20,000 bases of DNA, from positions 795,404 to 815,403 of the forward strand of contig AP026149.1 in assembly GCA_030295235.1 (NCBI GenBank), written 5' to 3'. Under the pieces are notes generated by a model. It was not told the DNA's origin. It saw only the letters and a list, made by a program, of their open reading frames with translations, and did no database searches. This DNA comes from Fistulifera solaris. Lineage: Eukaryota. Each line of letters starts with the position of its first letter. The first letter of the stretch is position 1. Position numbers and translations under genes: made by a program. This document shows positions 1-19,669 of this stretch, piece after piece.

Positions 1-1
1 T

Positions 2-601
2 GTCGTCGTCATCGTCAACATCAATAATTGACCCGTCGTCGTCCTCGACACTATTTACTGGTCCTCGCATCAAGTCGCGCACGCTAGCTCTTTGAACATC
101 GTCTTTTTGATACATTCTTCGACCTTCAAAGACATTAAGAACCGGCTGAAGAGCCTCGGGAAGGGCTTTTCGTCTCGGTGAACTTAGCACGGGTTGCTGT
201 TGGTCGGCCTTTGAGCTTTTCTCGTAGAGCGAGGCCTTTTCCCAAATTTTAGTTCGTTTCGCTCTCTCAATGGCTTTGACAGGCGATACGAGAAACTCCT
301 TTGATGCAGATGACTTGCTGGGGCTTGATAGGTCAGCGGGTACTGAGCTAGCCTGAATTTCGTGCCCTGACTCCTGAATTCTTCGACTGACGGCGTTTCC
401 CTTTGCAACAATACGCCTTGGCGAACCAAAGTCGCTCTCGGATTCATCCCTACACGAAAGGTCTTCATACATAGTGATCTTTTGGGAGATTGCTGTTGGA
501 ATTTGTCGTCCTGCTTTGAAATATGCGACAGACGGTTCCGAGCCACTCGAGGAGTCGTCAGAATCTAAGACAACGCATATTTCGTCTTCTTTTGCGTTCT
601 C
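2..601 (-). CDS. Partial gene (internal exon, runs off the left edge) for a Ser/acidic-rich, probably disordered protein of unknown function
   Basis: Manual translation gives 200 stop-free codons (ENAKEDEICVVLDSDDSSSG...ISQKITMYE...IWEKASLYE...EALQPVLNVFE...IIDVDDDDD). The frame is preceded by a pyrimidine-rich acceptor-like TCTTTGCAG at 610-602. It is absent from the ORF track, presumably because it has no stop inside the window. The upstream exon/start was not resolved. Confidence 0.6.
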
Positions 602-1357
602 CTGCAAAGAGCGTGCGCGTTATTCGCTTGAAAAGGATGCCTAGATGGAGGAGTTGTCATTTTGTGGTATGCTTCAGCATTCATGGAGCCGCCGTCGCTT
701 TTGAACTCAACAAGATGATGATCGAGATGCGCTTCCACACATAGTCAAAGCCGTCAAAAATGAGAAATAATATTCTCAAAGCGACTACCTGGTACGACCG
801 ACGACGCAGAGAAGAAAGGAACGAGAGAAGAGAGAAGAGAGAAACGAGAGAAAAAGGCCCAACGTGAATATTATGTCTCTGAAAACTGAAAACATACGTA
901 GTAAGTAGTAAGTGATTGGACACTGGACAAGCCATTGGTCACTGGGTTCTCTGAATATGAATCGTAATGTACTACTGTTCTTCAACTAGTTCGTTGTAGG
1001 AAAATAGAAAGCAGGATTGCGGATTGCGGATTGCGGGTCATTGCGTTCCACATCGTGAATCATGATGACTCATGACTCACGACTCATGTTTTCTCTCTCA
1101 TCACCTCATCGCTCATCGAGCAGGACCACCTTGCCTCGAATGAAAAATGAAAGTGGTTTCTAGGTTTTCTGGTAGTTTCTGAAGTCAAAGGATGAGTGCA
1201 TCATAGATCCTGCTCCTCTAAACATAATTCAAATGAAGTACAACAGTTGCTCCTCTCACCAAGTTTGCAGCACAAATAATACAAAGTATGGAGGTAAGGT
1301 TAGGCATTTAAGGCAATAAATAAAATTGACAAAAGGGGCCTGACGTGAATGATGCAA

Positions 1358-1980
1358 GTGAAAAACCAAGCCCCACATTTTCTGGGTACGTGAAAATAAC
1401 ACACGCCCACATTTTCTGGGTACGTGAGTACAAAGTACGGAGTACGTGAAAATACTACACCCCCACATTTTCTGGGTACGTGAAAATACTACACCCCCAC
1501 ATTTTCTGGGTAAGTAAGTACAAAGTACGGAGTACGTGAAAATACCACACACCCACATTTTCTGGACACGTGAAACTACTACACACCCACATTTTCTGGA
1601 TACGTGAAAATATCACAAATCACAACCCACATTTTCTGGACATGGGAAAATACCACACACCCACATTTTCTGGAGACGTGAAAATATCACAAATCACAAC
1701 CCACATTTTCCGGACACGTGAAAATACCACACACCCACATTTTCTGGCGACGTGAAAATAACACACTCCCACATTTTTTGGATATGCGAAAATACCACAC
1801 ACCCACATTATCTGGAGACGTGAATATACCACACACCCACATTTTCTGGAAACGTGAAAATACCACACACCCACATTTTCTGGCCAAGTGAAAAAATACC
1901 ACACGCCCACATTTTTTGGATATGCAAAGATACCACACACCCACATTTTCTGGAAACGTGAAAATAACACACAACCAGAT
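1358..1980. repeat. Minisatellite, ~16 full copies of a 34-bp unit (ACGTGAAAATACCACACACCCACATTTTCTGGNN)
   Basis: The CCCACATT core recurs 16 times between 1371 and ~1950, mostly 34 bp apart. Two units carry an AGTACAAAGTACGGAGT insert and two carry an ATCACAAATCACA variant. The overlapping ORFs here are repeat artefacts. Confidence 0.95.
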
Positions 1981-2204
1981 TTTATGCGGACGGATGCATA
2001 TTGTGCTGCGCATTGGCTTCAACCGATTTTTCTGAGCGCAACAAATGCGTCATGCGTTTAATATCGCACATCCTCGTCTCTTTTACGAACATAACATTCG
2101 AATACTCCGGTTCGTCGAAATCACAGGCGAAGTACTCGAGCGAGGGGAAACAGATACCTGGTAATTCTTGATATTCTTTCGAAAAAAGTCGAGGCGGACG
2201 AAGA

Positions 2205-3179
2205 ATGCAGCTAATCATACTGCCAGGATTGTTGAAAACCACATCACGAGGGAGTCGTAGCAACGGGAAGTTTATGCGCCCAGGCAACAACTGTCATGTA
2301 TCTTGCAAGGACCGGCCGAGACGTCAATCTGCTACTTATCATTCACCGTCTTTATCGCCTAATCCTTCTCGACCTGTTCTACCTCATTCATCACCATCGT
2401 ACGATTCCTTATCAGTGTCATCCAAATTCTGGATTATAGCACCACGTGCTATCCTGGCTGCCGGTTGGGTGTATGTTGTTCGAGAGTATTGTTTCGATTT
2501 CACACAATGTGAAGGTCCGAGTATGTACCCCACTCTCAAGCCCTTTGGAGAAATCATTTTACTGGAAAAGTTCTGGTGTCGTCGTGCCATGGCGGGTGGT
2601 AGTACCGGAAAAAGTCGCATTCGATATGCTCAGCAACAGCAAGGAGAGGAGGAGCAAGCCGTTTGGTGGGAACCCAAAGTTTCGGTCACGGAATTAAATC
2701 GCTATCAACCACTTTCGTTATGGGGTAAACTCCAACACTTCTTTTCACCACTCAGTGTGGGTGATTTAGTCGCAACGTGGCATCCGAATCGACCAGGAAT
2801 GATTTGTAAGCGTATTTTGGGATTGCCTGGCGATCAGATTTTGTTGTCTCGGGAACAAGCGGAACGATTCCATCTACCTCCGCACCAACGACTGTTGGTG
2901 ATTCCTGACGATTATTTGTGGTTAGAAGGTGATAATCCATTAAATTCGTCGGATTCGCGTGATTATGGTCCTGTACCCACGGAGCTGGTCATCGGACGTG
3001 TTCTATTGCGGCTGTGGCTCATTCGGAAACGAGCGTGGTTTCGTCGTGGCGAGCCTCCCGTCCTTCCTCATACTTATGGAGCCGAGTCGACAGTTTTGCC
3101 AACCGGTTATCAAGGACAAATGATTGTTCGGAGCATTCCGCCACAACCGACAACTAGGAATAAACAACAAAAGACATGA
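2205..3179 (+). CDS. IMP1: Mitochondrial inner-membrane peptidase subunit 1-like (S26 signal peptidase family)
   Basis: Catalytic Ser box CEGPSMYPTL, catalytic Lys box ICKRILGLPGD, and the WLEGDNPLNSSDSRDYGPVP box; hydrophobic segment before the Ser box. The true start codon is uncertain (2205 or 2274). Confidence 0.85.
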   Translation: MQLIILPGLLKTTSRGSRSNGKFMRPGNNCHVSCKDRPRRQSATYHSPSLSPNPSRPVLPHSSPSYDSLSVSSKFWIIAPRAILAAGWVYVVREYCFDFTQCEGPSMYPTLKPFGEIILLEKFWCRRAMAGGSTGKSRIRYAQQQQGEEEQAVWWEPKVSVTELNRYQPLSLWGKLQHFFSPLSVGDLVATWHPNRPGMICKRILGLPGDQILLSREQAERFHLPPHQRLLVIPDDYLWLEGDNPLNSSDSRDYGPVPTELVIGRVLLRLWLIRKRAWFRRGEPPVLPHTYGAESTVLPTGYQGQMIVRSIPPQPTTRNKQQKT

Positions 3180-3290
3180 AATTTAGGACACAGTAGACAG
3201 AAGCAGCACTTTACTTTTCTTTTAGCTAGACATCTTTAAGCTAACGGCCGGCATATCATATATTATTATTTGGTTCAGAGACATAATGAT

Positions 3291-4090
3291 TTAGCCCATC
3301 TTGAGAAGACCCTTTCCAGCGTTAACGGCGAAGAAAGTATCCGCAAAGACAAGAGCCAAGACGGCCTGCAACTTCATGACAATGTTCAAGGCTGGTCCGG
3401 ACGTGTCTTGGAACGGATCACCCACAGTGTCACCGACAACCGCCGCCTTGTGAATGTCCGATCCCTTGCCCTGAAGTTCACTGTCCGGAGAAGCTTTTTC
3501 AATATATTTCTTAGCATTGTCCCAAGCACCACCCGAGTTGGACATATGTGGCCAACTGAATGGAAGCGATCAAAGAACCAACCAAGAGACCCGAGACAGC
3601 CGAAACTCCAAAGAAGATACCGGTCAAAAGAGGAGTGAAAATAACCATGGCCGCAGGGGGAACCATTTCACGAAGAGAAGCCTGAGTACTGATGGCAATG
3701 CAAGCATCGTAGTCCGGTCGTTCCGTAGGGTTGGCATCCAAAAGATGAGGCTTTTCGTCAAACTGACTCTGGACTTCCAAGACCATAGCCATGGCGGCTT
3801 CACCAACACTCTTCATGGTGAGAGCAGCAAAGGCGAACGGGATCATACCACCCACAATCAAGACCACCCACAATCAAGAAGGCAAACGTAACAGGCTCCA
3901 ACATATTGACACCATCGGCAAAGACTTCGTCTCCGGAAGCATGGCGAATGCGTGTAACGAAGGCACCAAAGAGAGCGAGAGAGACAAGAGCCGCGGAACC
4001 GATGGCGAAACCCTTTCCGATAGCAGCAGTCGTATTACCAGCAGCATCCAAAGCATCGGTCTTTTCGCGTTCGGAAGGATATTGCGTCAT
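3291..4090 (-). pseudogene. 5'-truncated, frameshifted membrane H+-translocating pyrophosphatase (V-PPase), C-terminal third only
   Basis: Motifs [40 protein letters not shown] and [23 protein letters not shown] are spread over three frames. A 16-bp tandem duplication (3847-3878) and a ~2-nt deletion near 3547 shift the frame. I see no PPase-like sequence upstream of 4090. Confidence 0.9.
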
Positions 4091-4638
4091 GAGGAGTCAT
4101 GACTCTTGACTGAAGTGCAGTGTGCAGTGGTGTCCTCCTACAGCGTGGGTGTACAAGGATAGAAGGAGGTAAACGCTGGTTGCAATATTCTCGATGCTCA
4201 TCAACGCAAAAGCTATTGCCTGTCGTAACATCATAAGCTTGAGAAAGTTTCAGAATGGACAGAGGATTGGGTGCGATCCGGCTCGAAATATATTACGGAG
4301 TACTCCGTATATCCATTCGTATATGCAAATGAACGTCAAATTTGCATTCTGTCTTGAGGAAATTAGGAATAAATCATATTATACCTGGTAGTAAAAAAAA
4401 ATCGTCTTCGTAATTCGTGACTGAAAGCACTCGTGGCGGAAAGTCGCGTACACTTTAGTGCAGTATCAGTATCAGTATCAGTTTAATGTTGTAGGGTACA
4501 CCAATCATTCGCGGTCATCTTTCTCGTCGGCAATCAAAACAACAGAAACAAAAAGTCATCTTCGCAACGCGATATCCTGACAATATGAAATAATAATGAT
4601 TCGATCATCCCTGAGAAATATATAATATCGTGTTACAG

Positions 4639-7170
4639 ATGAAGTCCACATGTGGTGAATCGATTGCGGCGAAGTTGGCACTCTTTGAAGCAACGATTGC
4701 GACAAACGATGAATCGACTTCCCGTTCGTTCATTGCAAATTTCGCGAAAAAGGAAAGAGGCCAAATGCGCCGAAGGTCTTTAGCTTCTTACCCTCCATCA
4801 GTTCCCGTTCAAGTCGAATCTCTGGAAATTGTAGAAATGAGCGAAGTCACAGAAACAGAAAGAGGCGAAGACATCTTGGAGTACTCGAACAGAGAGCGCT
4901 CCGGAAACCAGCGTCGTCTTGTCCCCGAGCATTTCGAGCCCAGAGCTAGGCGACATAGCATGACAATGACCAGTAGGAAGCAAAGTTTGACGGATTGCCG
5001 ACATAGTTTGACTGGTTCTCTGTACAAGTTAGACGCAAGTACCGATGATTCGCATGATACAAGTGCATTTTCGCGACAAGACACGGTCAAAAGCATAGCC
5101 AGGCAATTCGAGGCACAGCATGAAAAGGATGACTCGACATTCGACCTTGTTCAGCCTGCAAGACACACGTCTGCTGCTTTACAGCCAACGATTGAAGCCT
5201 TTGAGTCAGTGCAACCGGTCAAACATACCGATGACTACGAAAATTACAAAGAAGAGCTTGCACAGACTTGCTCGGGGTTATTAGACCAAAATCGAAGAGT
5301 ATTTCTCATACAGCCAGAGGAAGCGCGGGAAACGAACTCAAGACTATACGTGAGAAAAAGTTCTCGCAGAAAGACTGATTCAAGTAGTGTAAGGCCTCAT
5401 GGATTGGACGAAAGAGCGGACGAAGAGTCATTATCAAGCTCGGAGGAAGACAACGACAGTTCATTTTCGAGCCATTCATCCGATGATCAAAGCCATACTG
5501 AGCCGAGCAATGGTGTAGACGACCAGTCTTGTAAGCGTATTCACTCGTTAAGACCGGGAATGGAGAGAGGGCATAGTATCGAAAATCTAAATGAAGAGAT
5601 GCATTTGATGCACACCCACGAATTGACAGGAAGTTCTGAGTATCAGGATGGAGACTACGAGCGACCCCGTAGACGCGTCAACGCTCTTCGCCCAGGAATG
5701 GAAAGGGGGCATAGTGTCGAGAACCTCTCAGAAGAAATGAAACTGGTAGAAACTGCTGCAACAAGGAAAGGGAGCCCTGCCATTCCGGATGGAATCGACG
5801 AGCGACCCCGCCGACGTGTCAACCCACTTCGTCCGGGAATGGAAAGGGGGCATAGCGTTGAAAACTTATCAGAAGAGATGCAGCTGGAGAGAAATACTGG
5901 AATGGAAGAGAGTTATTACAACCTGGATGGAAAGGAAGAGCGTTCTGGTAGGCGTGTCAACCCGCTTCGCCCAGGAATGGAAAGGTGGCATAGCGTCGAA
6001 AATCTATCAGAAGAGATGCATTCAATGCACAACTCTGAAACGCGAAAAAATTCTTCTGAAGATGAATACCCAAATAAAAAAGAGCGACCTCGAAGAGGTG
6101 TCAACGCACTTCGCCCAGGAGTTGAGAGGGGGCATAGTATTGAGAATTTGTCGGAAGAAATGAGCTTGTTGCACATATCTGCAACGGAAGATATTTTCGA
6201 AAATCGATATGGCGTGGTCGAGCAACCCCGTACACGTGTCAACGCTCTTCGACCGGGAATGGAAAGGGGGCACAGTATTGAAAACTTATCGGAAGAAATG
6301 CAGTTGTTGCATAGCTCTACAAGCAGAGAAAGCTCTGATCATCAAGATGCAGTAGTCGAACGACCCCGTAGACTTGTCAGCTCTCTTCGACCGGGAATGG
6401 AAAGGGGACACAGTTTCGAGAACCTGTCGGAAGAGATGCAATTGCTGCATAACTCTACAAGCGGAGAAAGTTACGAACATCAAGAGGCAATAAACGAGCG
6501 TCCCCGTCGACGAGTTAACGCGCTTCGCCCGGGAATGGAAAGGGGACACAGTTTCGAAAATCTATCCGAAGAGATGCAGTTGATGCACAATTCTACAAGT
6601 GGAGAAAGTTACGATCTTCAAGATAGAACGCACGAGCGTCCTCGTAGACGTGTCAATCCTTTAAGGCCGGGAGTCGAGAGGGGACACAGTATTGAAAATT
6701 TAGTGGAAGAGATGCAGCTAGGGCACCAATCTGAAAAGGGAGCAAGTTCTAGTGGTCATGATGGATACGACGAACAAAGTCGGAAACGTGTGAACCTTTT
6801 AAGACCGGGAGTGGAGAGGGGCCATAGTATTGAAAACTTATCGGAAGACATACATTTGTTGCAGACTTCTATAACGGGAGAAATTTCAGGTGGTAACGAT
6901 GCAAGGGATGAGCGACATCGTAGACGGGTCAATACGCTTAATCCAGGCATAGAAAGAGGCCATAGCTTTGATGACGATGTAGAGGGCCTCGTCGCCATGC
7001 AGTCCTCCTTTGCAGAGGTTGGCGTCGCCGATGATATGAGTTCAGCTTACTCTTCATCATCTGACGAAAGTGATGACTTTCCGATAAAGGAGATTGCTTT
7101 TAAGCGTCGCCGCCGCAGAAGGAGAAGAAAATATTGGAACGACTCACATGCGGCGAGAGAAGCTGTTTAA
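4639..7170 (+). CDS. 843-aa hydrophilic protein of unknown function with 11 tandem ~46-aa repeats
   Basis: Long uninterrupted ORF; first ATG at 4639, preceded by TTACAG, so an upstream exon is possible. The repeat core is RRVNxLRPGMERGHSxENLSEEMxL and the C-terminus has a basic run KRRRRRRRRK. Confidence 0.85.
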   Translation: MKSTCGESIAAKLALFEATIATNDESTSRSFIANFAKKERGQMRRRSLASYPPSVPVQVESLEIVEMSEVTETERGEDILEYSNRERSGNQRRLVPEHFEPRARRHSMTMTSRKQSLTDCRHSLTGSLYKLDASTDDSHDTSAFSRQDTVKSIARQFEAQHEKDDSTFDLVQPARHTSAALQPTIEAFESVQPVKHTDDYENYKEELAQTCSGLLDQNRRVFLIQPEEARETNSRLYVRKSSRRKTDSSSVRPHGLDERADEESLSSSEEDNDSSFSSHSSDDQSHTEPSNGVDDQSCKRIHSLRPGMERGHSIENLNEEMHLMHTHELTGSSEYQDGDYERPRRRVNALRPGMERGHSVENLSEEMKLVETAATRKGSPAIPDGIDERPRRRVNPLRPGMERGHSVENLSEEMQLERNTGMEESYYNLDGKEERSGRRVNPLRPGMERWHSVENLSEEMHSMHNSETRKNSSEDEYPNKKERPRRGVNALRPGVERGHSIENLSEEMSLLHISATEDIFENRYGVVEQPRTRVNALRPGMERGHSIENLSEEMQLLHSSTSRESSDHQDAVVERPRRLVSSLRPGMERGHSFENLSEEMQLLHNSTSGESYEHQEAINERPRRRVNALRPGMERGHSFENLSEEMQLMHNSTSGESYDLQDRTHERPRRRVNPLRPGVERGHSIENLVEEMQLGHQSEKGASSSGHDGYDEQSRKRVNLLRPGVERGHSIENLSEDIHLLQTSITGEISGGNDARDERHRRRVNTLNPGIERGHSFDDDVEGLVAMQSSFAEVGVADDMSSAYSSSSDESDDFPIKEIAFKRRRRRRRRKYWNDSHAAREAV
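5533..6975 (+). repeat. Coding tandem repeat, 11 units of mostly 138 nt
   Basis: The codon preceding the conserved PG starts at 5551, 5689, 5830, 5968, 6112, 6250, 6388, 6526, 6664, 6802 and 6940 (spacing 138 nt, once 141 and once 144). Differences in the core are largely synonymous. Confidence 0.95.
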
Positions 7171-7493
7171 CTATACTTTACTGCAATTATTGATGGTATC
7201 GATCAAATATCTAGTGCAGTCTTTCATTGTTAGCCAAGCTATAAGATCATTAGAAATGCCTCAGATCATGTTGTGTCAAGCTTGGCAACCGTAGATCGTC
7301 TTAAAAAATCAAACGACACCAGACATTGATAAAGCATATTGTTTTGATCTCTAACCCGTTCCATCACTCTAGTTGAAAACAGGAGTATGGCTGAGACACA
7401 TTGTCGTCATTAAAAAATCGCATGTCCGAACAATATCCTCCTTTTTGTAGTCACAAATGTCAGTAGACAACATACTCCCCTTTAAAGTCGGTT

Positions 7494-8625
7494 CTAGGTA
7501 GCCGATGCCTCCTGCTGAGAATGCTGCGCTATCTTCTGGGTGGCTTGCCTTGTAATCGCCACAGGACATGCCTCATCGCCTTTCTCTGCTGCCGCATATT
7601 CATGAGGGCACAAATTACGTCCTTTGTTTCGAACGGCATGAACAGTGTCATGCAAGTACCGTACGACTGGATCGTTCATCTCGTCTTCATCCCATACTTT
7701 TGAATGCAATAAATACAACATAAGCCAGCACGGCAAGTACCAAAGAGACGTCAGAAAAACCTTGCGAGCGTTTGAGTTTGTTTGCTCGTTACAAAACCTT
7801 CGAGCAATTTTCATCGCGTAGGCGTTCAAAACAATACCTTCCAAAGCAAACATATTACTGGTCATTCCGGCCGCAGTAGAAATGAATGGTAGCGTAGCCA
7901 AATACCATGTGTACCGCACAATTAGTTTCGCAGCTCTGTCCGGATCTACACATGAGAGCATCTGAAAGCCACCGCGGGCATAATCAATACGATGCATATA
8001 CGACAAAGCGAAAAAATGCGGCATTTGCCAGACATACAACGTCGTCCCTAACAAAATAGCTTGAGCATCTAATGCACCTCCCGTGGCGGCTGAGTAACCA
8101 ATCTGCAGTCAAGTCGCGAGGGTAAGAAACGACCGATGAACATGCATGATGTGAAATCGCAAACAATAATCTTACCAAAGGCGGTACTGCTCCAACAACA
8201 GCTCCCACCCACGTATTTATAACGGATCGAGGTTTTAGGTATGTGTACACCCCCGAGTAAAGAAGAATATTGCCAAACCCCAGCGCGGCGGCAATAGGGT
8301 CGGTCATAGCCAGAAGCGCAGTCCCACCAGCACCCCATAACGTTGCGGCAGTTTTAGCTTCAGCGATAGAGAGTGCACCAGTAACAAGCGGGCGTGTCTG
8401 AGTCCGTTTCATGCGAGAGTCTTTATCTACTTCAAATATTTGATTTAATGCGGCCGCACTACTACTGCAGAGCGCCGTTCCCATCATACAAAGCGCAAAT
8501 TCAGACGTTAGAACAGGACCAGCAGCAGCCACATATCCTGCTGCGCTTGTTGTTACAACAAGAGCTGAGAGTTTGGCTTTAGCCAAATCTGAGTATGCCG
8601 CGAGCATTGAAATTCGAGGGCGCAT
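7494..8625 (-). CDS. COX10: Protoheme IX farnesyltransferase (heme O synthase), two exons: 8625-8176 and 8102-7494
   Basis: UbiA/COX10 motifs LAKAKLSALVV, NQIFEVDKDSRMKRTQTRPL, YTYLKPRSVINTWVGAVVGAVPPL, WQMPHFFAL and DYARGGFQML. Removing the intron joins VPPL|IGYSAATG in frame. The frame stays open upstream to ~8703 (Ser-rich, transit-peptide-like), so the real start may be on a further exon. Confidence 0.92.
8103..8175 (-). other. 73-nt spliceosomal GT-AG intron in COX10
   Basis: Minus strand reads CCTTTG|GTAAGATT...CTTGACTGCAG|ATTGGT; phase 0; splicing restores the conserved PPL-IG. Confidence 0.9.
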
Positions 8626-9609
8626 TGAGTTTTCAGTCTCAAAGGATGATTTAGATGAACTAGCAAACGGTCTGGAGAAAGCAGACGTTCCGCAACCAGC
8701 CTTTCACTGTATACTCTATGGATTGAACCGACAGTCTTCGTATTCTTTCCATTGAGGATTGGCATATTCGATAAAGTACGAATGAATTCACGATCGGATA
8801 AGCGAAGAATCGGTGCAAACTAACGACGCAATTGTTTTCTCGAGTAAGTCGAAGCTCCAATGACTCGCCCAGCTGACGCAATGAATCACAACAAGCAGAA
8901 AAGATTGACTCTCCGAAATGAAGCAAAGAAAAAAGTTAATGATGATGATTAGTCTTCAGTCAAAACATCGCGTTTTTCCGCAGCAAGACGCGAGCGATGA
9001 GGATGAGGCGAGCAACGAAACAACGACGGATGACAAGCAGACCAATGGTTGTCTCTGCCGCCCGTAATCCTTATTGTAGAAAGTACTTCGTGGAAATATC
9101 GACTGCACTATAATATGTCGAACGCACGACGCTTCGAATGTTTACGAACTCTCACCTAGCTCTGGTAGGGAATTAGAAAACAAAACGTTGATGGAACTAG
9201 TCACGCAACGCTTCAAATGTCTACCTACGTTTACGTAGCTTTCCTACGGAAATTTATCGACCTAGGGATACCCGGATATCGTGTAATTTTGGTCCCACTA
9301 TTATTCGGGTCTTTTGGACGCCGATGTCAACATTACTTTGCCCGGTATCAAACAATAATTGACTTTGAATTGAGAGCAATGGAGAGTTTCTAATTCATAA
9401 AAAAGTAGTTGCAATGAAGTAATGAATACGTTTTTGCTAATATCTCTTGCTCCGTCCGCACCGGTCCGGACATTTCACAGTAGGGACTTATGAAGGAAAG
9501 AAAGGATACTGCGTAGTCTAATTAAGGTATATTTGCCAAGCGACATTAGTGAGGAACACATTCCAGCGCTTCGTAGGCCAGACTGTGTTGAAAATATTAT
9601 CGTATATCG

Positions 9610-11580
9610 CTAAAATTTCGCGGACTCGTCAATGCCACAATCGGCGTCCAGCACCAAAGGGGTGTGCAGGAACAACTTGAGCGCCCTTACTCCCTTCCAT
9701 GTAATATCCGTGTTTCGAAGACACAACCATTTCAAACTTGAATGTCCCATAATCGCCTTGGCAATGTCCAGAGCAGCCACATCCGTAATACGATTACCAT
9801 CAAGGCGAAGGTCTTCCAGCTTTGAAATACAGTAAAGATGAGATAGTCCTGCATCATTTATCCGGTTGTTTGCGACGTTCAGCGAAATCAAACTAGGGTG
9901 ATTCGTTTTATCTCCAAATACGCTTTTGCATATCTCTTGAAAGCCGAGGTCGCCAATGGAATTCCCTTCCAGATCGAGTCGTAACAAAGAGGCATTGTCG
10001 GCCAGCGCCCGCGCAATCTGCGATGACCCGTCCCCGAGATCACATCGTTTCAAAGAAAGGCAGCGAAGTGTTGTATTCTTTATCAGAGCTTTGGCCAATG
10101 CAACAGCTCCGTTAAATCCAAGTGGCGTATCTTTAATGTAAAGTCGCTGCAGATTTACTTGATTTGCCGCAACGACACACTCGGAAAGCCTCCCGACACT
10201 GCGGCGCGAAACCATTGATCCTCCAAATGATGCGCTCGTTACACACGGTTTGAACTTCGCCAGACTGACCATGATAGCCAGCAGCTCTTCGTCGCCATGC
10301 TTTTTCTTCGTCAAATCGAAGCAGATCATTTTCTTTTCCTTAATATCCCGCAATATCTTTCCTAACCAACCTTTTTTATTTTCTCGAAAAGCAAACGCAG
10401 CATGGAGTTGATTTTCAGCTTCATCCGTCAAGACATTCTGCTCGAAATAGAGCGTCTTCAATTTGATCGGGTGGCGGCACACGACATGAATGAATGGTGA
10501 TGGATCTCTCATTTGATTTCCAACCAAGTTCAACTCCTCGAGAGCCATGTCGGCCTTGAGAGACTCGGCTAAAACCTTAATTCCGCTATCACAAATGAAG
10601 TTACACTTCAGATTCAAATGAGTTAGCGCTGAGTTTTGCATCAGCATTTCTGCCAAGAACCCAGCGCCCGCGTCTTTAATACCATTCCACGATACATCCA
10701 AACATTTCAAGCACGTGTCGTCGTTTTCAATGATTCCCTGAGCGACCAACCGCACACCATTATCGCCAATACTATTCCGAGATAAGTTCAATTCTCGCAG
10801 GGTGTGATTGAATTTTAAGACAACGCCAAACGCTTCGGCCCCTTCGGTCTCGATGTTATTATCCATCATGTTCAACATTTTCAACGCCTTGTTGTGTCCT
10901 TTAATAAATGCGTCCGCTAGATGGTAAGCTCCGCTATAGCCAATTTTGTTGTTGCTTAGATCAAGCTCTTCCAGTAAGCATTCGGGTGAAGCTAGCACTT
11001 CACCAATGATATGCGCTCCCCTGTCTCCCAGCTTATTTTGCGATAAATCTAGACGCACGAGACGGCCGAGATAGAGCCCCATACTCTTTATAGATCTTCC
11101 AAAACTGTTATGCGAAAGGAAAAGTTCACGTAAAGAGTGTTCTGATCTCAAAAGCGAGGCAACGACCGATGCACCTTTAGCTCCTAGCTTATTGTTGGAT
11201 AAATGGATCGACTCCAAACGACATGTCGGCAACAGCAAGGCGTGGTCGAGCAAGTATGAGAGCCCTTCCGGCTTGATTTCATTATCTGATAAATCGATTT
11301 CACAAAGAAGTTCAGTTTGTTGAATAATGCGAGCCAGCGAAGGAACCGATTCTGTTGTCAGGCCATTCTTGGGTAGCCTGAGAGACCTTAGTTTGACTTT
11401 TTCATGATTTTCGAAGAGAATAGTATGTAACCTCGCAATATCTTTATTTTGAAAAACGTGCGAGCAATGAATCTTCTCAATATGCGCAATGTTGTTTTCG
11501 AGATACTGAAGGATTTCGTCGCTATTAATAAATGATTCGTCAGAAGGTATCTTGTCGAATTTTGCGACGGCTGTATTCAT
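9610..11580 (-). CDS. Ribonuclease-inhibitor-type leucine-rich repeat protein (NLRC3/RNI-like LRRs), 656 aa
   Basis: Many ~28-aa LRRs such as LRELNLSRNSIGDNGVRLVA, LEELDLSNNKIGYSGAYHLA and LLRLDLEGNSIGDLG, in two blocks. No NACHT domain is visible. The ORF is intact. Confidence 0.9.
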   Translation of the reverse strand: MNTAVAKFDKIPSDESFINSDEILQYLENNIAHIEKIHCSHVFQNKDIARLHTILFENHEKVKLRSLRLPKNGLTTESVPSLARIIQQTELLCEIDLSDNEIKPEGLSYLLDHALLLPTCRLESIHLSNNKLGAKGASVVASLLRSEHSLRELFLSHNSFGRSIKSMGLYLGRLVRLDLSQNKLGDRGAHIIGEVLASPECLLEELDLSNNKIGYSGAYHLADAFIKGHNKALKMLNMMDNNIETEGAEAFGVVLKFNHTLRELNLSRNSIGDNGVRLVAQGIIENDDTCLKCLDVSWNGIKDAGAGFLAEMLMQNSALTHLNLKCNFICDSGIKVLAESLKADMALEELNLVGNQMRDPSPFIHVVCRHPIKLKTLYFEQNVLTDEAENQLHAAFAFRENKKGWLGKILRDIKEKKMICFDLTKKKHGDEELLAIMVSLAKFKPCVTSASFGGSMVSRRSVGRLSECVVAANQVNLQRLYIKDTPLGFNGAVALAKALIKNTTLRCLSLKRCDLGDGSSQIARALADNASLLRLDLEGNSIGDLGFQEICKSVFGDKTNHPSLISLNVANNRINDAGLSHLYCISKLEDLRLDGNRITDVAALDIAKAIMGHSSLKWLCLRNTDITWKGVRALKLFLHTPLVLDADCGIDESAKF

Positions 11581-12034
11581 CGCTTTTGTAGCAAATTAAA
11601 TCATCACATACTCCGTGCTGCTTTGGCAATTGCACCTAGTAAGCAGCAAAACGAGCGCACTGACTGTGTTTGTAACCTGAAAAATATCACTTTCGACGAG
11701 AATGAAGACACTCCGTAATCCGTAATGAATATATAATTGGTTTGGTTGCTTGATTGTTGCTGTTCAACGCGAGCGCGAGGCTCGTTGTTTGTGGTTGAGC
11801 GGACGGCGTTCCAGAAAAAATCGTAAACGAATCTTAGCGGTACTTGTCTCCTTGTGACATGTGACATGCAATCCGCGCCTTTTTCTCCGCAACAAATACT
11901 CCGGAGTAAATAAACGACCCGTAACCCTTGGTTTTCTAATTTTCCCCGCATTCGCATTCAGCACATTCATTATTCTTTTTGATCAAAGAATCATTCATTT
12001 CATTATTTGTTGCTTCGCATAACCATAAAATCTT

Positions 12035-13309
12035 ATGTCGTGCTCTTCTTGGCTGCGCTTGCTATCCTTCGTCTGTTATTGTTGCTTTTTTTTGGCTGCA
12101 AAGTCCATCGACGGCGTCCCTTGCCTTCATCTCTTCACATAACAATATTCATCGTAAGCGATCAGCTTCTCCGTTACGACAAGAGCCACATCAACAAGAA
12201 GAAAATATTCAAGTATCAGATGCACCAAAGGAATGTCCTTATTCGATGCGGTTCTCACCGCAACGGATTAATTTGACGCGACCCAAACAATTGCCTCGCA
12301 AAAGATCCTCGGATTGACCTCCTTCTTTCCGGGACGTCGGAGTCGTTTCGAGCAAACTATTTCCTGTGAGCGATTAGAATGGTGCAAAGAAACAGATGGT
12401 CTTGCTCTTCTTGCTAGACTTTTTCATACAGCAGCCACCGCAACTGAAAACAATCTTGTCATGGCGTTTCCGGATGCGTCGGCTTATTCATTGCTCCAAA
12501 ATGCTGTTGAGATTCTTGGCCCATACGCTACACAATGGGATCTACAAATGATATGGGAGCCTCTGCCGCATATCAAATTCAATAAAACAGTCAACTCGGA
12601 TGCAGCAAACAACAATCAGCACGACAGAGCGTGGATTGACAACGAAACTCACCAGAGACGCACTCAAGAATGGGTCCAACGTCTACTTGTTACGCATGGA
12701 ATTTGTCCCTATACCCGGACTAATACAAAGTCTGGACAAGGGATACCAGGAGTCCCTGTTGCATTAATTGCCTACAGCGCCACACCCGCTACTTCGTTAC
12801 TGGAACTCGTATCTGTCTCGCTCACCAAGATTCAACACGATATGCTCGACGTTGGACCGGAAAAAACAAGTAGTATTCTTCTCGCTGCACCGGAGTTCGA
12901 CAACCGTTTCGAAGAATGGAGTGCACTTTTCTTTTCTATATTGCAAGCCTGCATAGTAGCAGTCTCTTTAACAGACACAATTGGCGTCGTTTGCTTTCAT
13001 CCTGAGTACAAAGTATCCGACGGTCAAACCTGGCCGGGTTTTGGGCACATGCACAGCGTTCCGAAATTGCAACAATTGACAGATATTGATTTGTGGAATG
13101 AAGCTGCCGCAGGTGGTGCTTGGCAACGTCGAACTCCACACGCGACGTTGAATGTACTATGGGCGCCCCAACTCGCTTTGGCAGAAAAGCAACGGAAAAC
13201 AACAAGCCTGTATCGAGAAAATATTCGAAAGCTAGTGCACGGTATTGGTGTTGAGAAATTGCAACAAGATTTGGAACAAGAGCGGAGGCTGTTCAAGGTT
13301 GTTGAGTGA
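12035..13309 (+). CDS. DUF1415-like protein, probably with a signal/bipartite plastid presequence; the 5' part needs two homopolymer indel corrections
   Basis: ORF 12314-13309 has TQEWVQRLLVTHGICPYT, IGVVCFHPEY and WQRRTPHATLNVL, which resemble DUF1415 (W..........CPFA, FHPDY, RSPYP). ATG 12035 plus removal of one T from the T8 run (12086-12093) and addition of one A to the A4 run (12300-12303) gives MSCSSWLRLLSFVCYCCFFWLQSPSTASLA-FISS. Confidence 0.65.
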
Positions 13310-13480
13310 ATCCCCATTTAGTGCTTTTCTGGTCCATGATAATATTATGTTGAATCTGCTCTAAACAATATCTCCTAAGGATAAACACTTTAATGTGCGC
13401 TTTAGTGTACAATTTGCAATTCAAATTAGTTTTGAGCATTTTAAATATAGTTCGACACACTCCAAAATAACAAATAACGA

Positions 13481-13680
13481 ATACCGATATTCACGTTATA
13501 ATAACGTATTATATCAGAGCCATTTTTCCCAATATCGATATTTGTCGATATTCGTACGCCTGACAGACGGATATGTGGCATTTCACGCTAAAATGGCTGT
13601 ATTTTGCGGGCGAAGACAGACAGTCGCCGATATTAATATCGGTTATCATATCGTATAATACGATATTGATATTCGTAAAA
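13481..13680. repeat. AT-rich cluster of short palindromes and CGATAT/ATATCG motifs
   Basis: ACGTTAT-A-ATAACGT (13493-13507), AATATCGATATT (13531-13542), CCGATATTAATATCGG (13627-13642) and ATATCGTAT-A-ATACGATAT (13648-13666). Confidence 0.75.
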
Positions 13681-13692
13681 ATCAAAATATAT

Positions 13693-13810
13693 TTAGGGTT
13701 AGGAATTTGGGAATCGGGATATGGAACATGGAACTTGGAACAAGGAAACGTAGAAGTAGGAAGTAGGAATTAGAGAAACGGTAACTTAGAAGTAGCTAGT
13801 AGGAATTTGA
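13693..13810 (+). repeat. Subtelomeric repeat copy A: TTAGGGTTAGG seed followed by degenerate G-rich 7-mers (GGAACTT/GGAAGTA-like)
   Basis: 13693-13747 is 51/55 identical to 19313-19367. Confidence 0.85.
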
Positions 13811-13875
13811 GTAGCACTTGCAAAAACTGTTGTATCTATCAATGTTTTGCTCCTGTAAAAATACCGACATGGCTC

Positions 13876-14383
13876 TGTCAAAGAGCGAGGTCGAGGTTGA
13901 GTGTCGGACTGAAAGATTTATTCAGTCATGAGTTGACACGTCATCGGATGTCGGAATGGTTCGAAATGACCGCCTAGTTTATTGGGAAAGCATTCTACTC
14001 GTGAAAGGAGTCTCGGAAGTGTTTCGAACTATATGTTTGGGGATTTGGGATCACGGAAGAATCCAGTATGCAATTATGGACGATGACTGTTGCTAGTTGC
14101 TAAGGAACATGCAATAATGGAGAATCTGGTGGATTGGCAGAAAGGGCTATTTTATCCTAAAGTTGTTATTGGAGAAATGGACTTGGCAAGATCGGATCAT
14201 GATCAGATCAAGATCAGATCGGAGACCAGTGAAAAGAGGAAAGCGAAAGTAATCGTAGGAAATCGTCATAATTCTGTAAACGAGTGTTTGGAGCAAAAGT
14301 TCGTTGTTTCAATAGTCTTTCGTCTGGGGTGTGGAGTCCCCGATAGCCGAGAGCAGTTACAGACCGCGGTAGAAATTTCAACA
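13876..14383 (+). repeat. 5' LTR (508 bp)
   Basis: TGTCAAAG...AATTTCAACA; direct repeat of 18744-19254. Confidence 0.95.
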
Positions 14384-14433
14384 CGCTTATAAGCGTGGCG
14401 TTGAGAAAAAAAAAGTTTACGAGACAAGACAAG

Positions 14434-17400
14434 ATGACCGACGAGGGAGAGAAGATGAGGGCTTTGACCTTCTACCCGTTGGACGACAAGGTCGCTGAGA
14501 AGTCGTACGATGACTGGAAGTTCAAGACGATGTCGCTGATCACGAAGAGAGGTTGGACAAGTGTGTTCGATGACCTGAAGGCCGAGATCCCCACGAAGGA
14601 AGTTGCGATGGGAGCAGCGGCGACGGCGAAGGACAAGGAGTTGTATCGAAGCAATCTCGAGATCATCGATTTGTTGGTGATTGCGTGCGAAGGCGTTCCT
14701 TTGGGTCTTGTCAAGAGAGCGGATGGTGATGCGAGAGAGCGCATTCAAGCTTTTGGATGCTAAGTACGCCCGGAACAGCGAGGAAGATTTGGCGGAGGTG
14801 TTGGCGGAGTTCGGACGGTGCAAGTTGGCGTCGAAGGAAGATGACCCTGACAAGTTCTTCCTGGAGTGCGATCGGTTACAGAACCGTTTGAAGACAATCG
14901 GATCGCAGTATGTGAAGCCAAGTTTCGTTTTGAAAGCCCACTATTTGGCCAACCTTCCTGACGAGTATTCGGATGTGATCACGAAGTTGAGCGGAAAGAT
15001 CAACGAGACCTCGATTGAAGACCTCGAGAAGGAGATCCGGAACAAGTGGAAGCGCTGTTTCAAGCCCAAGAACGATGAAGAAAACGAAGAAAAAGAAAAA
15101 AGACAAAAAAGAAAATAAAAATTTAGCATTAAACGTCGAAAAGGGCAAGGGTGGTTTTAAGAAGAAGTTCAAAGGAAAGTGCCGCAACTGCGGCAAACAA
15201 GAACACAAGGCAGCGGAGTGCAAGAGCGACAAGAAGAAAGTCTGCTTCAACTGTGGCAAGGAAGGCCATTTCTCTCGCGAGTGTCCGGACAAGTCGAACG
15301 GCAAGGATCCGAAGTCGGAGAACAAGGACCTGAACATGTTCGTTGGCATGTGCTATGAGGTCGGCAAAGGCGGCGAAGAGTTCTGTGGCGTCGTTCATCA
15401 AGTTGGTGCGGTCGAAACGTCGAGAGTCAACGACAAGGAAAGGTTTCTTCTCGACAGTGGAGCGACGTGCCATGTTGTTTTGGATGAAACGATTTTGCGC
15501 GATGTTATTTCGACGAAGGAGTATTTGGTCGTCGGCGACGGAAAGGAAGTCCAAGTACACAAGAAGGGTACACTCATGCTCGCTACTGTGGGTGGTACTA
15601 TGAAGTTGAGTGAAGTCAAGGTGGCGCCAACGTTCGCAAAGAATATCATCAGTACTGGGGCTTTAGTGAAGCAAGGGTGCAAGATTGAGATAACCAGTTG
15701 TGCGATGAAGATCACTGACCCCTCCGGAAAGAGTGTGTTGACGGTACCTCAGTCACACTATGGGTTATACTACTTGAAGGCTAGCGTTGTTAAGTCAGAT
15801 GTCCATGCGGTGGAGACCAAAGTGAAGATGGACATAAATGCTGCGCACGATATGTACGGACACGCAAGCGACATTCCTTTGAGGAGTCTCATGAAACAGT
15901 TGGGAATCGAGTTAACTGGAACCAAGGAGACATGCGAGGCGTGCGCGTATGCGAAGGCGAAAGCAAAGGCGGTGTGCAAGTCGACGGCTATCAAAGCAAC
16001 GGCGAAAGGAGAACGATTCTACGTGGACACGAGTGGGCCCTACAAGAAATCGTTGGGACAGAGTTGCTACTGGATCTTATTGGTGGATGATTACACGCGC
16101 AAAGCTTGGAGTTACTTCGTTACAAAGAAGTCGATGATTGGCAAAGTCATGACGCTATTTCTTGATCGCTTGAAAGGAGATCCGAACGTAATCGTAAAGT
16201 ACATTCGGTGTGATAATGCAGGCGAGAACGGAACATTCAAGGAGATCTGTGAGGCGAGGGGCATAACTATGGAGTTTACTGCCCCGCATACTCCGCAGAT
16301 GAACGGTGTTGTTGAGAGGAAGTTCACGACAATTCGCGATAAGGCCCTTGCGATGATGTTGGCGGCGAAGTTGTCGGATGAGCATCAAGGAAAGTTATGG
16401 CCCGAGGCTGTTCACACGGCAACGAAGTTGGATAACGCTGTCCCGAATCGGAATGTGGAATCGAGCCCTGATTATGCGTGGTACGGCGAGCATCCTAAGA
16501 TACTGAAACACTTGGTTCAGTGGGGGCGGATCGGATATGTGACTTTACGAAACAAACAGCCCAAGTTGGAGAAGAAGTCAGTGAAATGCGTGATGGTTGG
16601 GTACGCGGATTCGCATGCGGGCGATACGTATCGTGTTTACAAGCCGGATGAAAATATTGTCATTCTCTCACGTGACGTCACTTGGGCAGACTGGCATGGA
16701 TCGAGTGCTTCAGTTGCATCAGAGTTAAGGATGTTTGCAGCTGGAATGGAAGTCGACTTAAAGGATGACCAAATTGGGGAGGAAGTCGCAATCAAACCGG
16801 TGATGCTCGAAGATGTCGATGCTGGAGCAGGGAGGAAAGTTGTGGAAGAGAAAGCGGCAGAGGAAGTTGTCGAAGTGGCTGTGGAAGGTCCTACGGAAGC
16901 TCTGGTACCCGAGGCTACGGCGGACAATACTCCAGCACCGAATCAACGGAAAGAGACGCAATCGACGATGAAAAGACTGAATAGAGAAATGGCAAGGCTG
17001 GACACTTCATATAACCCAACAATGAGCGTAAAGGAGAGATCAATACAATCGATGTGTCGGAAGGTTATTTTCACTACGTTTTGAATACGGAGTTGGCGTC
17101 GGATCCTGGTGCGCCGAAAACTTACAAGGAAGCCTTGGTTGGTCCGGATGCAGACAAGTGGAAAGAGGCAATGAAGAAGGAGATTGAAAATTTCATTAAA
17201 AGAGATGCTTGGAAGATGGTTCCTAGAAAGCAGATGAAGGAGAGAGGACGGAAGCCTGTTACGCCGAAGTGGATTTTCAAAAAGAAGAAAAGAGGCAACG
17301 GGAATTCGTTTCAAAGCTCGGACTTGTGCGCGGGGGTTTGTTCAAATCCCTGGTGTGGACTTCACTCTTTCGCATTCACCTGTTGCATCGGACATGTCGG

Positions 17401-18743
17401 TTCGAATGGTTTTGGCAGTGGTACTTTACATGTGGAAGAAGATGTGGGTCACTGAAGTTATTGACGTTGAGGCTGCGTTTCTAGAAGCGAAGTTGAGAGA
17501 GGAGGTGTATCTTGAATGGCCCTTTGGGCTATATGAGTTTGGGTACATCACGCATGAAGAGTTAATTGACTACATCATCCTATTGGAGAGGGCGATGTAC
17601 GGTTTGGTCCAGAGTCCACGAGAGTACTTCATGCTCTACTGTGCCCAATTGAGGAAGCTGGGGCTTATTCAGAGTGCTGCGGATCCGTGTGTCTGGTTTA
17701 AAGTGGTGAACGGCGAGACAGTATTAATCATTGTGGTGTATGTCGATGATTGTATCCTTGCCGGTCCCCAAGAAGAAATCAATTGGTTCAAGAGAGAGAT
17801 CAAGAAGCGCTTCAACATTACCGAAATGGGCCCGATTCAGAAACACTTGGGAGTTTGGTACGAGAGAAAATCGGATGAAGCAGGAGAGTTCTACGAAGTG
17901 CGAATGGATGAGTACAAAGACGAGATAGTAAAGGATTGGAAGGAGCTGATTGGACCGTTGAAAGCTGAGAAGACACCGGGCTATCCAGGGGAATCGCTTG
18001 TGAAGAACGAAGGCGATCCAGTTAATAAGGATCAGTATCGGAAGTTTCTCGGACGTCTCATGTGGCTGGTGCGGAAAGTAGCTCCGGAATGTGGAAATGC
18101 AGTTAGGGAGCTTGCAATGTTTATGGATTCGCCAGGTGAAGAACATTGGAGAGCGATGAAGAGATTAGTCGGCTATCTCGAGAGTACGGACGTTCATTTG
18201 AAGTTGCGCGAGCCTGTTAATTTGAAGGTTTACGCATGGGTGGATTCAAACTTTGCTACGAACAAGGAGGCAGCGGAAAAGTGTTACTGGCTACTTTGTT
18301 ACCATTGGAGGTTGTTTGTGTGGCTTTTCAAGCAAGTTGCAACCGGCGGTGACACTGTCAAGTACGGAGGAATATTATCACGGCATCTACGTGTGCGACG
18401 GACATCAAGTTTTGCAGATGTTATTGAAGAATTGTTTCCGAAGGTGAAGATTCGACCGGCTACCTTGTTTGAAGATAACACGGGCGCAATCTTCTTGATG
18501 GAAAAACAAGTTGTGGGGAATAGGGCCGAAACACATTGATATTCGAATGCATTTTATAAGGGGAGATGATGGCTGCAACGGAGAAGGAAGAAAGCCAGGC
18601 TGGTTGTGAAGTTTATTCGGTCGGGAAAGGAATATTGCAGATCTGGAAACCAAGAATGTGACAGAGAAAATCCATGATCTTTTGGTGCCTGTTGTTGAGA
18701 AGGACTCATGGCGCGGTTAATCTTAGCAGCCGACAGGGAGGGA
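14434..18743 (+). CDS. Copia Gag-Pol polyprotein, broken by several small frameshifts (~14745, ~15100, ~17060, ~17290, ~18270 and later)
   Basis: Gag N-terminus (YDDWKFK); two CCHC knuckles (CRNCGKQEHKAAEC, CFNCGKEGHFSREC); protease LLDSGATCH; integrase HHCC (HDMYGH...CEAC) and DDE core (VDTSGP, RCDNAGE, NGVVER); RT (DVEAAFL, MYGLVQSPR, YVDD); RNase H (VDSNFA, RKSVTGY, FEDNTGAI, HIDIR). Confidence 0.93.
18735..18743 (+). other. Polypurine tract
   Basis: AGGGAGGGA lies immediately before the TG of the 3' LTR. Confidence 0.85.
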
Positions 18744-19254
18744 TGTCAAAGAAGCTGAGGTCGAGGTTGAGTGTCGGACTGAAAGATTTATTCAGTCATG
18801 AGTTGACCGTCATCGGATGTCCGAATGGTTGAAATGACCGCCCTAGTTTATTGGGAAAGCATTCTACTACGTGAAAGGAGTCTGGGAAGTGTTTCGAACT
18901 ATATGTTTGGGGATTTGGGATCACGGAAGAATCCAGTATGCAATTATGGGCGATGACTGTTGCTAGTTGCTAAGGAACATGCAATAATGGAGAATCTGGT
19001 GGATTGGCAGAAAGGGCTATTTTATCCTAAAGTTGTTATTGGAGAAATGGACTTGGCAAGATCGGATCATGATCAGATCAAGATCAGATCGGAGACCAGT
19101 GAAAAAGAGGAAAGCGAAAGTAATCGTAGGAAATCGTCATAATTCTGTAAACGAGTGTTTGGGCAAAAGTTCGTTGTTTCAATAGTCTTTCGTCTGGGGT
19201 GTGTGGAGTCCCGATAGCCGAGAGCAGTTACAGACCGCGGTAGAAATTTCAACA
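18744..19254 (+). repeat. 3' LTR (511 bp)
   Basis: By eye it differs from the 5' LTR by about 10 small indels and 3 substitutions. Confidence 0.95.
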
Positions 19255-19305
19255 TGGCTCTCGAGGAGTTGAACTTGGTTGGAAATCAAATGAGAGATCC
19301 ATCAC
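19255..19305 (+). other. Inverted exact copy of LRR-gene interior (reverse complement of 10497-10547); continues on the other side of the Copia at 13864-13875
   Basis: TGGCTCTCGAGGAGTTGAACTTGGTTGGAAATCAAATGAGAGATCCATCAC is 51/51 identical to the LRR coding strand (MALEELNLVGNQMRDPS). Confidence 0.95.
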
Positions 19306-19455
19306 GTTAGGGTTAGGGTTAGGAATTTGGAAATTGGGATATGGAACTTGGAACTTGGAAAAAGGAACTTAGAACTAGGTAAATTGGAAGTAGGAATCAG
19401 TAACAAAGGAGTAAGGAAGATGGAATAGAAGGAAATGTTGGAAATAAGGAAAAGA
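19306..19455 (+). repeat. Subtelomeric repeat copy B: GTTAGGGTTAGGGTTAGG followed by degenerate G-rich 7-mers
   Basis: About three telomere units, then AATTTGG AAATTGG GATATGG AACTTGG AACTTGG AAAAAGG; homologous to 13693-13747. Confidence 0.85.
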
Positions 19456-19669
19456 AGAAAGATTTCATTGGAAATGCAAATCAAAGTATCAAAATTATTT
19501 TGTGCAACAAAGACATTTGCAGTTCTGAGTTGGTGCATTTGGATCCATTTCACAGACTTTGATCAATGTTGTATCAAGAGTTAGACTTTGATCAATGTCG
19601 TACCAATGTGAATGGTGTCCTCTTTGTAGAATTGCTGGGTATGATCATAGAGCTTTGTTGTAGTGACTG

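Follow-up and report, generated by a model that had tools for sequence, protein, structure and literature searches.

The window analysed here, a stretch of 20,000 nucleotides from the diatom Fistulifera solaris (GenBank accession number AP026149.1, positions 795,404 to 815,403 of the forward strand), runs out into a terminal array of telomere repeats, and close to this chromosome end a Ty1/copia retrotransposon lies inside a 57 bp inverted copy of part of a neighbouring leucine-rich repeat (LRR) gene. The end consists of two nested modules, each made up of cut-off sequence, a short internal tract of telomere repeats (a telomere seed) and a subtelomeric repeat, and the LRR fragment with the Copia element stands between them. 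The features are listed below in window coordinates, with LTR for long terminal repeat and ORF for open reading frame.

9610–11580, minus strand: RNI-type LRR gene, intact, with a 656 aa ORF (Pfam LRR_6, E = 1.5e-47); donor of the 57 bp fragment
10497–10553, minus strand: donor stretch, encoding the conserved residues ADMALEELNLVGNQMRDPS; target hexamer at 10542–10547
13446–13690, no strand assigned: fragment of a dispersed repeat with many CGATAT-type motifs, truncated at the first telomere seed
13693–13703, plus strand: inner telomere seed TTAGGGTTAGG, in the orientation of the terminal array
13704–13794, plus strand: left copy of the subtelomeric repeat, opening with degenerate 7-mers
13795–13863, no strand assigned: 69 bp between the left repeat copy and the LRR fragment, without similarity to the right repeat copy or to window positions 1–13399
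13864–13875, plus strand: left part of the LRR fragment, CCGACA followed by the TGGCTC duplication (13870–13875)
13876–14383, plus strand: 5' LTR of the Copia element, 508 bp, TG..CA ends
14384–18743, plus strand: Copia internal region with gag, protease, integrase and reverse transcriptase, and at least three frame changes
18744–19254, plus strand: 3' LTR, 511 bp, TG..CA ends, with a purine tract immediately before it
19255–19305, plus strand: right part of the LRR fragment, 51 bp, beginning with the TGGCTC duplication (19255–19260)
19306–19323, plus strand: outer internal telomere seed GTTAGGGTTAGGGTTAGG, 18 nt, directly after the LRR fragment
19324–19668, plus strand: right copy of the subtelomeric repeat, 346 bp, between the outer seed and the terminal array
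19669–20000, plus strand: terminal telomere array of TTAGGG repeats (period 6, 53 copies, 87 % matches, 7 % indels)

When the element (13876–19254) and one copy of TGGCTC are deleted, the remaining flanks, 12 bp on the left and 51 bp on the right, close up to a 57 nt block that is the exact reverse complement of 10497–10553, as an earlier reading of this DNA made from the letters alone (the sequence-only reading) had stated. A repeat search found only one pair of inverted repeats in the window (n=1), namely 10497–10550 with 19252–19305, which is 54 nt long and 100 % identical; the three bases by which it exceeds the right flank are the terminal ACA of the LTR, which coincides with the ACA preceding TGGCTC in the gene. 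BLAST searches, all made against window positions 1–13399, returned one occurrence of the 57-mer (E = 4.4e-29) and matched the 51-mer of the right flank with E = 1.5e-24. The left flank is weak by itself (12 nt, E = 0.31), and as six of its 12 bases belong to the duplication, its independent evidence is limited to CCGACA (1 in 4096), which is exactly contiguous in the gene. The 57 bp match is nevertheless far from chance, and on this point the sequence-only reading was right. The same searches detected no homology past the 57 bp on either side and no further match of the flanks longer than 12 nt.

The copy is inverted relative to the LRR gene and lies 3.3 kb from its donor, and it is joined bluntly to its surroundings. 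At the left junction, ..AAAATA|CCGACA replaces the ..TCAAGG|CCGACA of the gene, and at the right junction ..CATCAC|GTTAGG replaces ..CATCAC|CATTCA, with zero bases of microhomology in each case. This absence of microhomology argues against microhomology-primed fold-back or template switching, and the blunt junctions fit end joining of the fragment, completed on the right by telomerase or by another join.

The donor stretch is retained within the uninterrupted 656 aa ORF. The homologues of the LRR protein begin with three at 93, 90 and 79 % identity and then fall to about 50 %, and in the alignment the residues ADMALEELNLVGNQMRDPS encoded by the 57 bp are kept in these three best homologues. 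The intact state of the gene and the conservation of this stretch among homologues identify the LRR gene as the source, with the terminal piece as its copy, and thereby confirm the donor named in the sequence-only reading. A truncated, near-identical LRR product was not present in the protein collection, where four matches to shorter LRR proteins, the best with 69 % identity, form a weak negative.

The Copia element is 5,379 bp long and is flanked by the 6 bp duplication TGGCTC. The domains recognized are, in order, zf-CCHC, Pol_BBD, gag_pre-integrs, rve and SH3_retrovirus (14991–17084), followed by RVT_2 (17238–18539, E = 2.5e-33), so that integrase precedes reverse transcriptase, which is the Ty1/copia arrangement. 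The polyprotein is interrupted by at least three frame changes, and this copy accordingly does not have the uninterrupted polyprotein of an autonomous element. Alignment of the two LTRs gave 501 matches, 3 mismatches and 11 gap columns (501/515 columns identical), and given this excess of indels some of the frame changes may be consensus errors. The presence of an integrase and of the 6 bp duplication also distinguishes the element from telomere-specific retroelements of the HeT-A/TART, MoTeR or Penelope-like kinds.

Contigs of three sequencing runs were compared with the window. The first (X1) is apparently from the same species, and holds 28 % of the sampled words at a depth of 2–6, with depth 0 over 9000–12203. 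The second (X2), a wetland metagenome, contains a relative with a similarity of only about 92 % (the LRR gene shows 84 differences over 1070 bases), and the third (X3), a riverine metagenome, covers 6/30 bins. One X1 contig joins the 3' end of the Copia internal region (18507–18741) to an LTR start that is the same as the window 5' LTR at 13876–14063, with 0 differences in 188 nt. Because this LTR start matches the 5' LTR and not the 3' LTR, the private differences of the window 3' LTR would be either specific to this Copia copy or errors. In X3, the LTR end is the same but the flank beyond 19257 differs, which represents another insertion site of this Copia family. A search of the metagenome contigs with the last 21 nt of the LTR gave one match, in an unrelated contig that by eye has no LTR similarity around it.

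The sequence-only reading described the element as capped by telomere repeats. A telomere tract does follow directly after the right flank, but this tract is internal and only 18 nt long, and the terminal array is reached only after a further 346 bp of subtelomeric repeat. A second seed and repeat module to the left of the element, at 13693–13794, went unremarked in that reading. Outside the terminal array, TTAGGGTTAGG occurs at three sites (13693, 19307 and 19313), all in the telomere orientation, and at none on the other strand. The left repeat copy aligned to 19324–19668 with a score of 93, against a shuffle mean of 19.8, and this score was reached by 0/500 shuffles; the seed and repeat from 13693 belong to a repeat family with 93 % identity over 55 nt. 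X2 rows hint at nested arrangements of seed and repeat, which is weak evidence. The sequence before the inner seed is itself a dispersed repeat, with an X2 depth at 13544 of 107 in six contigs versus 1–5 in the adjoining unique DNA. Past 13690, five X2 contigs and one X1 contig run into unrelated sequence, as do three X2 contigs before 13446.

Telomere repeats in the outward orientation thus abut cut-off non-telomeric sequence at both 13692/13693 and 19305/19306, which is the arrangement that de novo telomere addition would leave. The internal tracts are 11 and 18 nt long, short of a functional terminal telomere, and because each is followed by the subtelomeric repeat, a further step, either recombination or capture, is needed. 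The terminal array contains 39 perfect units, 70 % of its 332 nt, together with many GGGG and TTAGGA variants, and its imperfection reflects either variant repeats or low consensus quality at the contig end. The second module at 13693 recasts the site as a repeatedly repaired end.

Our preferred account, which is tentative and to which we give a probability of roughly 45 %, is that the 57 bp scrap was captured first and that the Copia element then integrated normally, at a repeatedly repaired diatom chromosome end. In the order of events and the repair pathway that we infer from the layout, the chromosome would have been cut off inside the dispersed repeat at about 13690 and would have gained a telomere seed and the common subtelomeric repeat. 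A later break in this terminal DNA would have been repaired with 57 bp of copy-paste filler from the LRR gene, inverted and blunt on both sides, and another telomere seed, repeat copy and telomere would have come to follow the filler, with the donor gene left intact. The Copia element would then have integrated by means of its own integrase into the gene-free terminal DNA, landing in the filler and making the 6 bp duplication.

The perfect 6 bp duplication, the TG..CA LTRs and the purine tract are consistent with ordinary integration, and the second module of cut-off sequence, seed and repeat at 13690–13794 is evidence of an earlier repair at the same end. As the sequence-only reading proposed, breakage and repair at the chromosome end still have to be assumed. 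Distal to 13703 there are 581 bp of non-telomeric DNA (160 + 57 + 18 + 346), of which the 57 bp form about 10 %, and landing in them is therefore a mild coincidence, given a terminal insertion.

Several observations weigh against this account. A hit on 57 bp is rare under uniform insertion, and is plausible only given insertion into terminal DNA. The 6 bp duplication is unusual for Copia, being one more than the usual 5, and the two diatom Copia examples given in PMC2806351 have duplications of 5 and 4 bp. The origin of 13795–13863 is unexplained, as 13801–13863 aligned to the right repeat with a score of only 18, reached by 123/500 shuffles, and no match was found in window positions 1–13399. 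The absence of microhomology is also what an assembly splice is expected to leave. The empty site, i.e. the repeat, the 57 bp and the telomere seed without Copia, was not seen in the thin cover of X1–X3, and neither 13863/13864 nor 19305/19306 is bridged among the contigs listed for these runs, whose thin or distant cover says nothing either way.

The sequence-only reading preferred the opposite order. There, the Copia element would have entered an allele or paralogue of the LRR gene to begin with; repair would afterwards have copied or captured the 5.4 kb element, together with its tiny flanks, into the subtelomere, where it would have been joined to telomere repeats, all independently of integrase. 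The flanks and the duplication do prove that integration into LRR sequence occurred somewhere, and the inversion and the distance of 3.3 kb are in keeping with local repair synthesis templated by a sister chromatid or homologue. Heterozygous Copia insertions are described as common in a diatom (PMC2806351), and templated insertions are reported to reach megabases (PMC11724301). However, the improbability of a Copia insertion in this fragment, which had been offered as support for a moved element, does not discriminate. It cancels because both orders need integration at the same hexamer in a copy of the LRR sequence. The two orders differ in the captured piece, which is 57 bp if the scrap came first and 5.46 kb if the element moved with its flanks. 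PMC11724301 describes templated insertions at breaks as mostly ~50–300 bp and copy-paste, with the donor kept, and the 57 bp piece is inside this range and the 5.46 kb piece outside it. Capture of the scrap first is preferred because movement of the element needs the same insertion and, in addition, a 5.46 kb copy whose ends overshoot the element by just 12 and 51 bp. If breakpoints fell at random within about 10 kb, the probability of such ends would by our rough estimate be of the order of 1e-5, and template switching would have had to occur without microhomology at either junction.

To our knowledge, no mechanism ties both ends of a 5.46 kb piece to the element. A speculative tie would be the processing of a 5.4 kb unpaired loop formed when homologues pair during mitotic recombination, followed by capture through end joining. 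Selection would also disfavour an insertion into a conserved coding region, unlike one in subterminal DNA. No joint between the LRR gene and an LTR was present among the X1–X3 contigs listed, where cover is inadequate (X1 depth is 0 over the LRR gene), and the shorter-protein matches described above include no truncated LRR product. The relocation order is therefore not supported, its 12 and 51 bp ends being left unexplained, and we regard it as improbable.

An assembly artefact, although unlikely, is a more serious competitor to capture of the scrap before integration. The Copia element or its short flanks would be misplaced, either because a heterozygous allele of the LRR gene carries the element (LRR::Copia), or because graph resolution or polishing replaced the true flanks of a terminal Copia with those of another copy. 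Polishing of the contig end looks poor, judging from the terminal array (87 % matches, 7 % indels, 70 % perfect units). The LTRs differ by three substitutions but by about 10 small indel events, a pattern typical of long-read consensus error; the differences between the X1 contigs and the window are mainly gaps of one base, and the polyprotein contains the frame changes noted above. Neither flank is as long as a short read, and each is tied to an LTR end; the junctions are unbridged among the contigs listed, and an LRR::Copia haplotype is plausible, as PMC2806351 describes heterozygous insertions of Copia as common for at least one diatom. However, the junctions do not contain shared sequence that could mislead an overlap or k-mer graph, and it is very unlikely that a three-piece chimera would have both its breakpoints next to the element. 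Had the flanks been taken from some random family member, it would be surprising to find them matching a gene 3.3 kb away, and polishing with reads from the true locus should remove wrong blocks of 12 and 51 bp. The lack of a truncated near-identical LRR protein (four matches, best 69 %) is weak evidence in the same direction.

We consider it very improbable that a larger inverted LRR duplication, produced at the end by fold-back or a breakage-fusion-bridge cycle, received the Copia element and was later trimmed on both sides by deletion and terminal truncation. The fragment is inverted and near its donor, and the end shows signs of repeated truncation and healing, as such a history would lead one to expect. 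However, residual homology beyond the 57 bp is absent on both sides, and the interval between donor and copy, which contains a DUF1415 gene, the dispersed repeat, the telomere seed and the subtelomeric repeat, is not palindromic. It would again be a coincidence for two independent trims to have stopped so near the element, at 12 and 51 bp.

Further routes were considered and rejected. Microhomology-primed fold-back from 13863 would require terminal base pairs, and there are none. Capture of complementary DNA (cDNA) does not account for the host flanks and the duplication. Copying of a read-through RNA by telomerase or a LINE-type enzyme was rejected as poly(A) is lacking and the copy lies in the wrong orientation, and element RNA should not be able to yield a complete 5' LTR together with upstream flank.

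If the junctions are real, this end is a readable record of a diatom chromosome tip that was repaired at least twice, with a seed and the common subtelomeric repeat added each time, once together with a scrap of a nearby gene, and of a retrotransposon that later settled in the gene-free DNA. If the element moved instead, excised or copied from a heterozygous LRR insertion with no more than 6–12 and 51 bp of flank and sealed onto a damaged end with telomere repeats, the locus would exemplify an integrase-independent route by which an LTR retrotransposon reaches a chromosome end, and if the junctions fail validation by reads, the finding shrinks to a possible heterozygous LRR knock-out and an assembly error. 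Most likely, known processes combined in an ordinary way at this diatom chromosome end, which would have been repaired repeatedly; integrase-independent relocation is possible and needs an unexplained coincidence. As both orders require the same integration, a transposon in a tiny orphan fragment is not, on its own, proof that it moved with its flanks. Diatom subtelomeres have been little described and the layout is a useful example, with precedents for each step in yeast and fungi.

Additional features were recorded elsewhere in the window. An 846 aa ORF at 4630–7170 (plus strand) has no Pfam match and includes about eight tandem copies of a 138 bp (46-codon) unit at 5646–6901. A non-coding tandem array at 1358–1983 consists of 12.8 copies of a 34 bp unit, with a higher-order period of 90 bp at its start. 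The UbiA prenyltransferase gene at 7494–8625 (minus strand) is divided between two overlapping ORFs, with about 90 extra bases between the two Pfam matches; the split is probably due to a short intron, the alternative being an assembly frame error. The named relatives of a neighbouring S26 protease are all from diatoms (Fistulifera, Mayamaea, Epithemia and Amphora).

In yeast, Ty1 cDNA is captured at breaks or eroded telomeres and Ty5 targets telomeric heterochromatin, and the Copia element described here is similarly an LTR element at or near a chromosome end or break. However, captured Ty1 cDNA has neither host flanks nor a target duplication, whereas the window copy has both, and it therefore either came from an integrated copy or integrated in place. 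The CoDi Ty1/copia elements (PMC2806351) are likewise Copia-type elements of diatoms, a group for which that source documents haplotype-specific insertions and element-linked rearrangements. The element in the window differs from the CoDi examples given there in its 6 bp duplication (versus 5 and 4 bp).

The LRR fragment resembles the filler insertions at double-strand breaks of yeast, human and plants in its retained donor, local origin, inversion and lack of microhomology, and also in its size if the captured piece was 57 bp. According to PMC11724301, a large fraction of templated insertions lack microhomology at both ends, and a single event can take up several fragments. Unlike those cases, the break here would lie in subtelomeric DNA beside a telomere seed, the filler carries a 5.4 kb retrotransposon, and both the break and the pathway are deduced from sequence. 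The chromosome ends of Magnaporthe oryzae, as described in PMC7367193, share with this one the internal telomere tracts within subterminal arrays, the presence of internal sequence on the end and LTR retrotransposons near the telomere. The internal tracts of M. oryzae stem from MoTeR telomeric retrotransposons, none of which were seen here, and the subtelomeric repeat in the window is short and non-coding and belongs to a diatom. PMC7367193 reports an internal sequence duplicated onto a chromosome end and, among 34 isolates, 12 de novo insertions of the LTR retrotransposon MAGGY into subterminal arrays. These findings are precedents for both steps of the simpler order, in which the LRR scrap was captured before the Copia element integrated.

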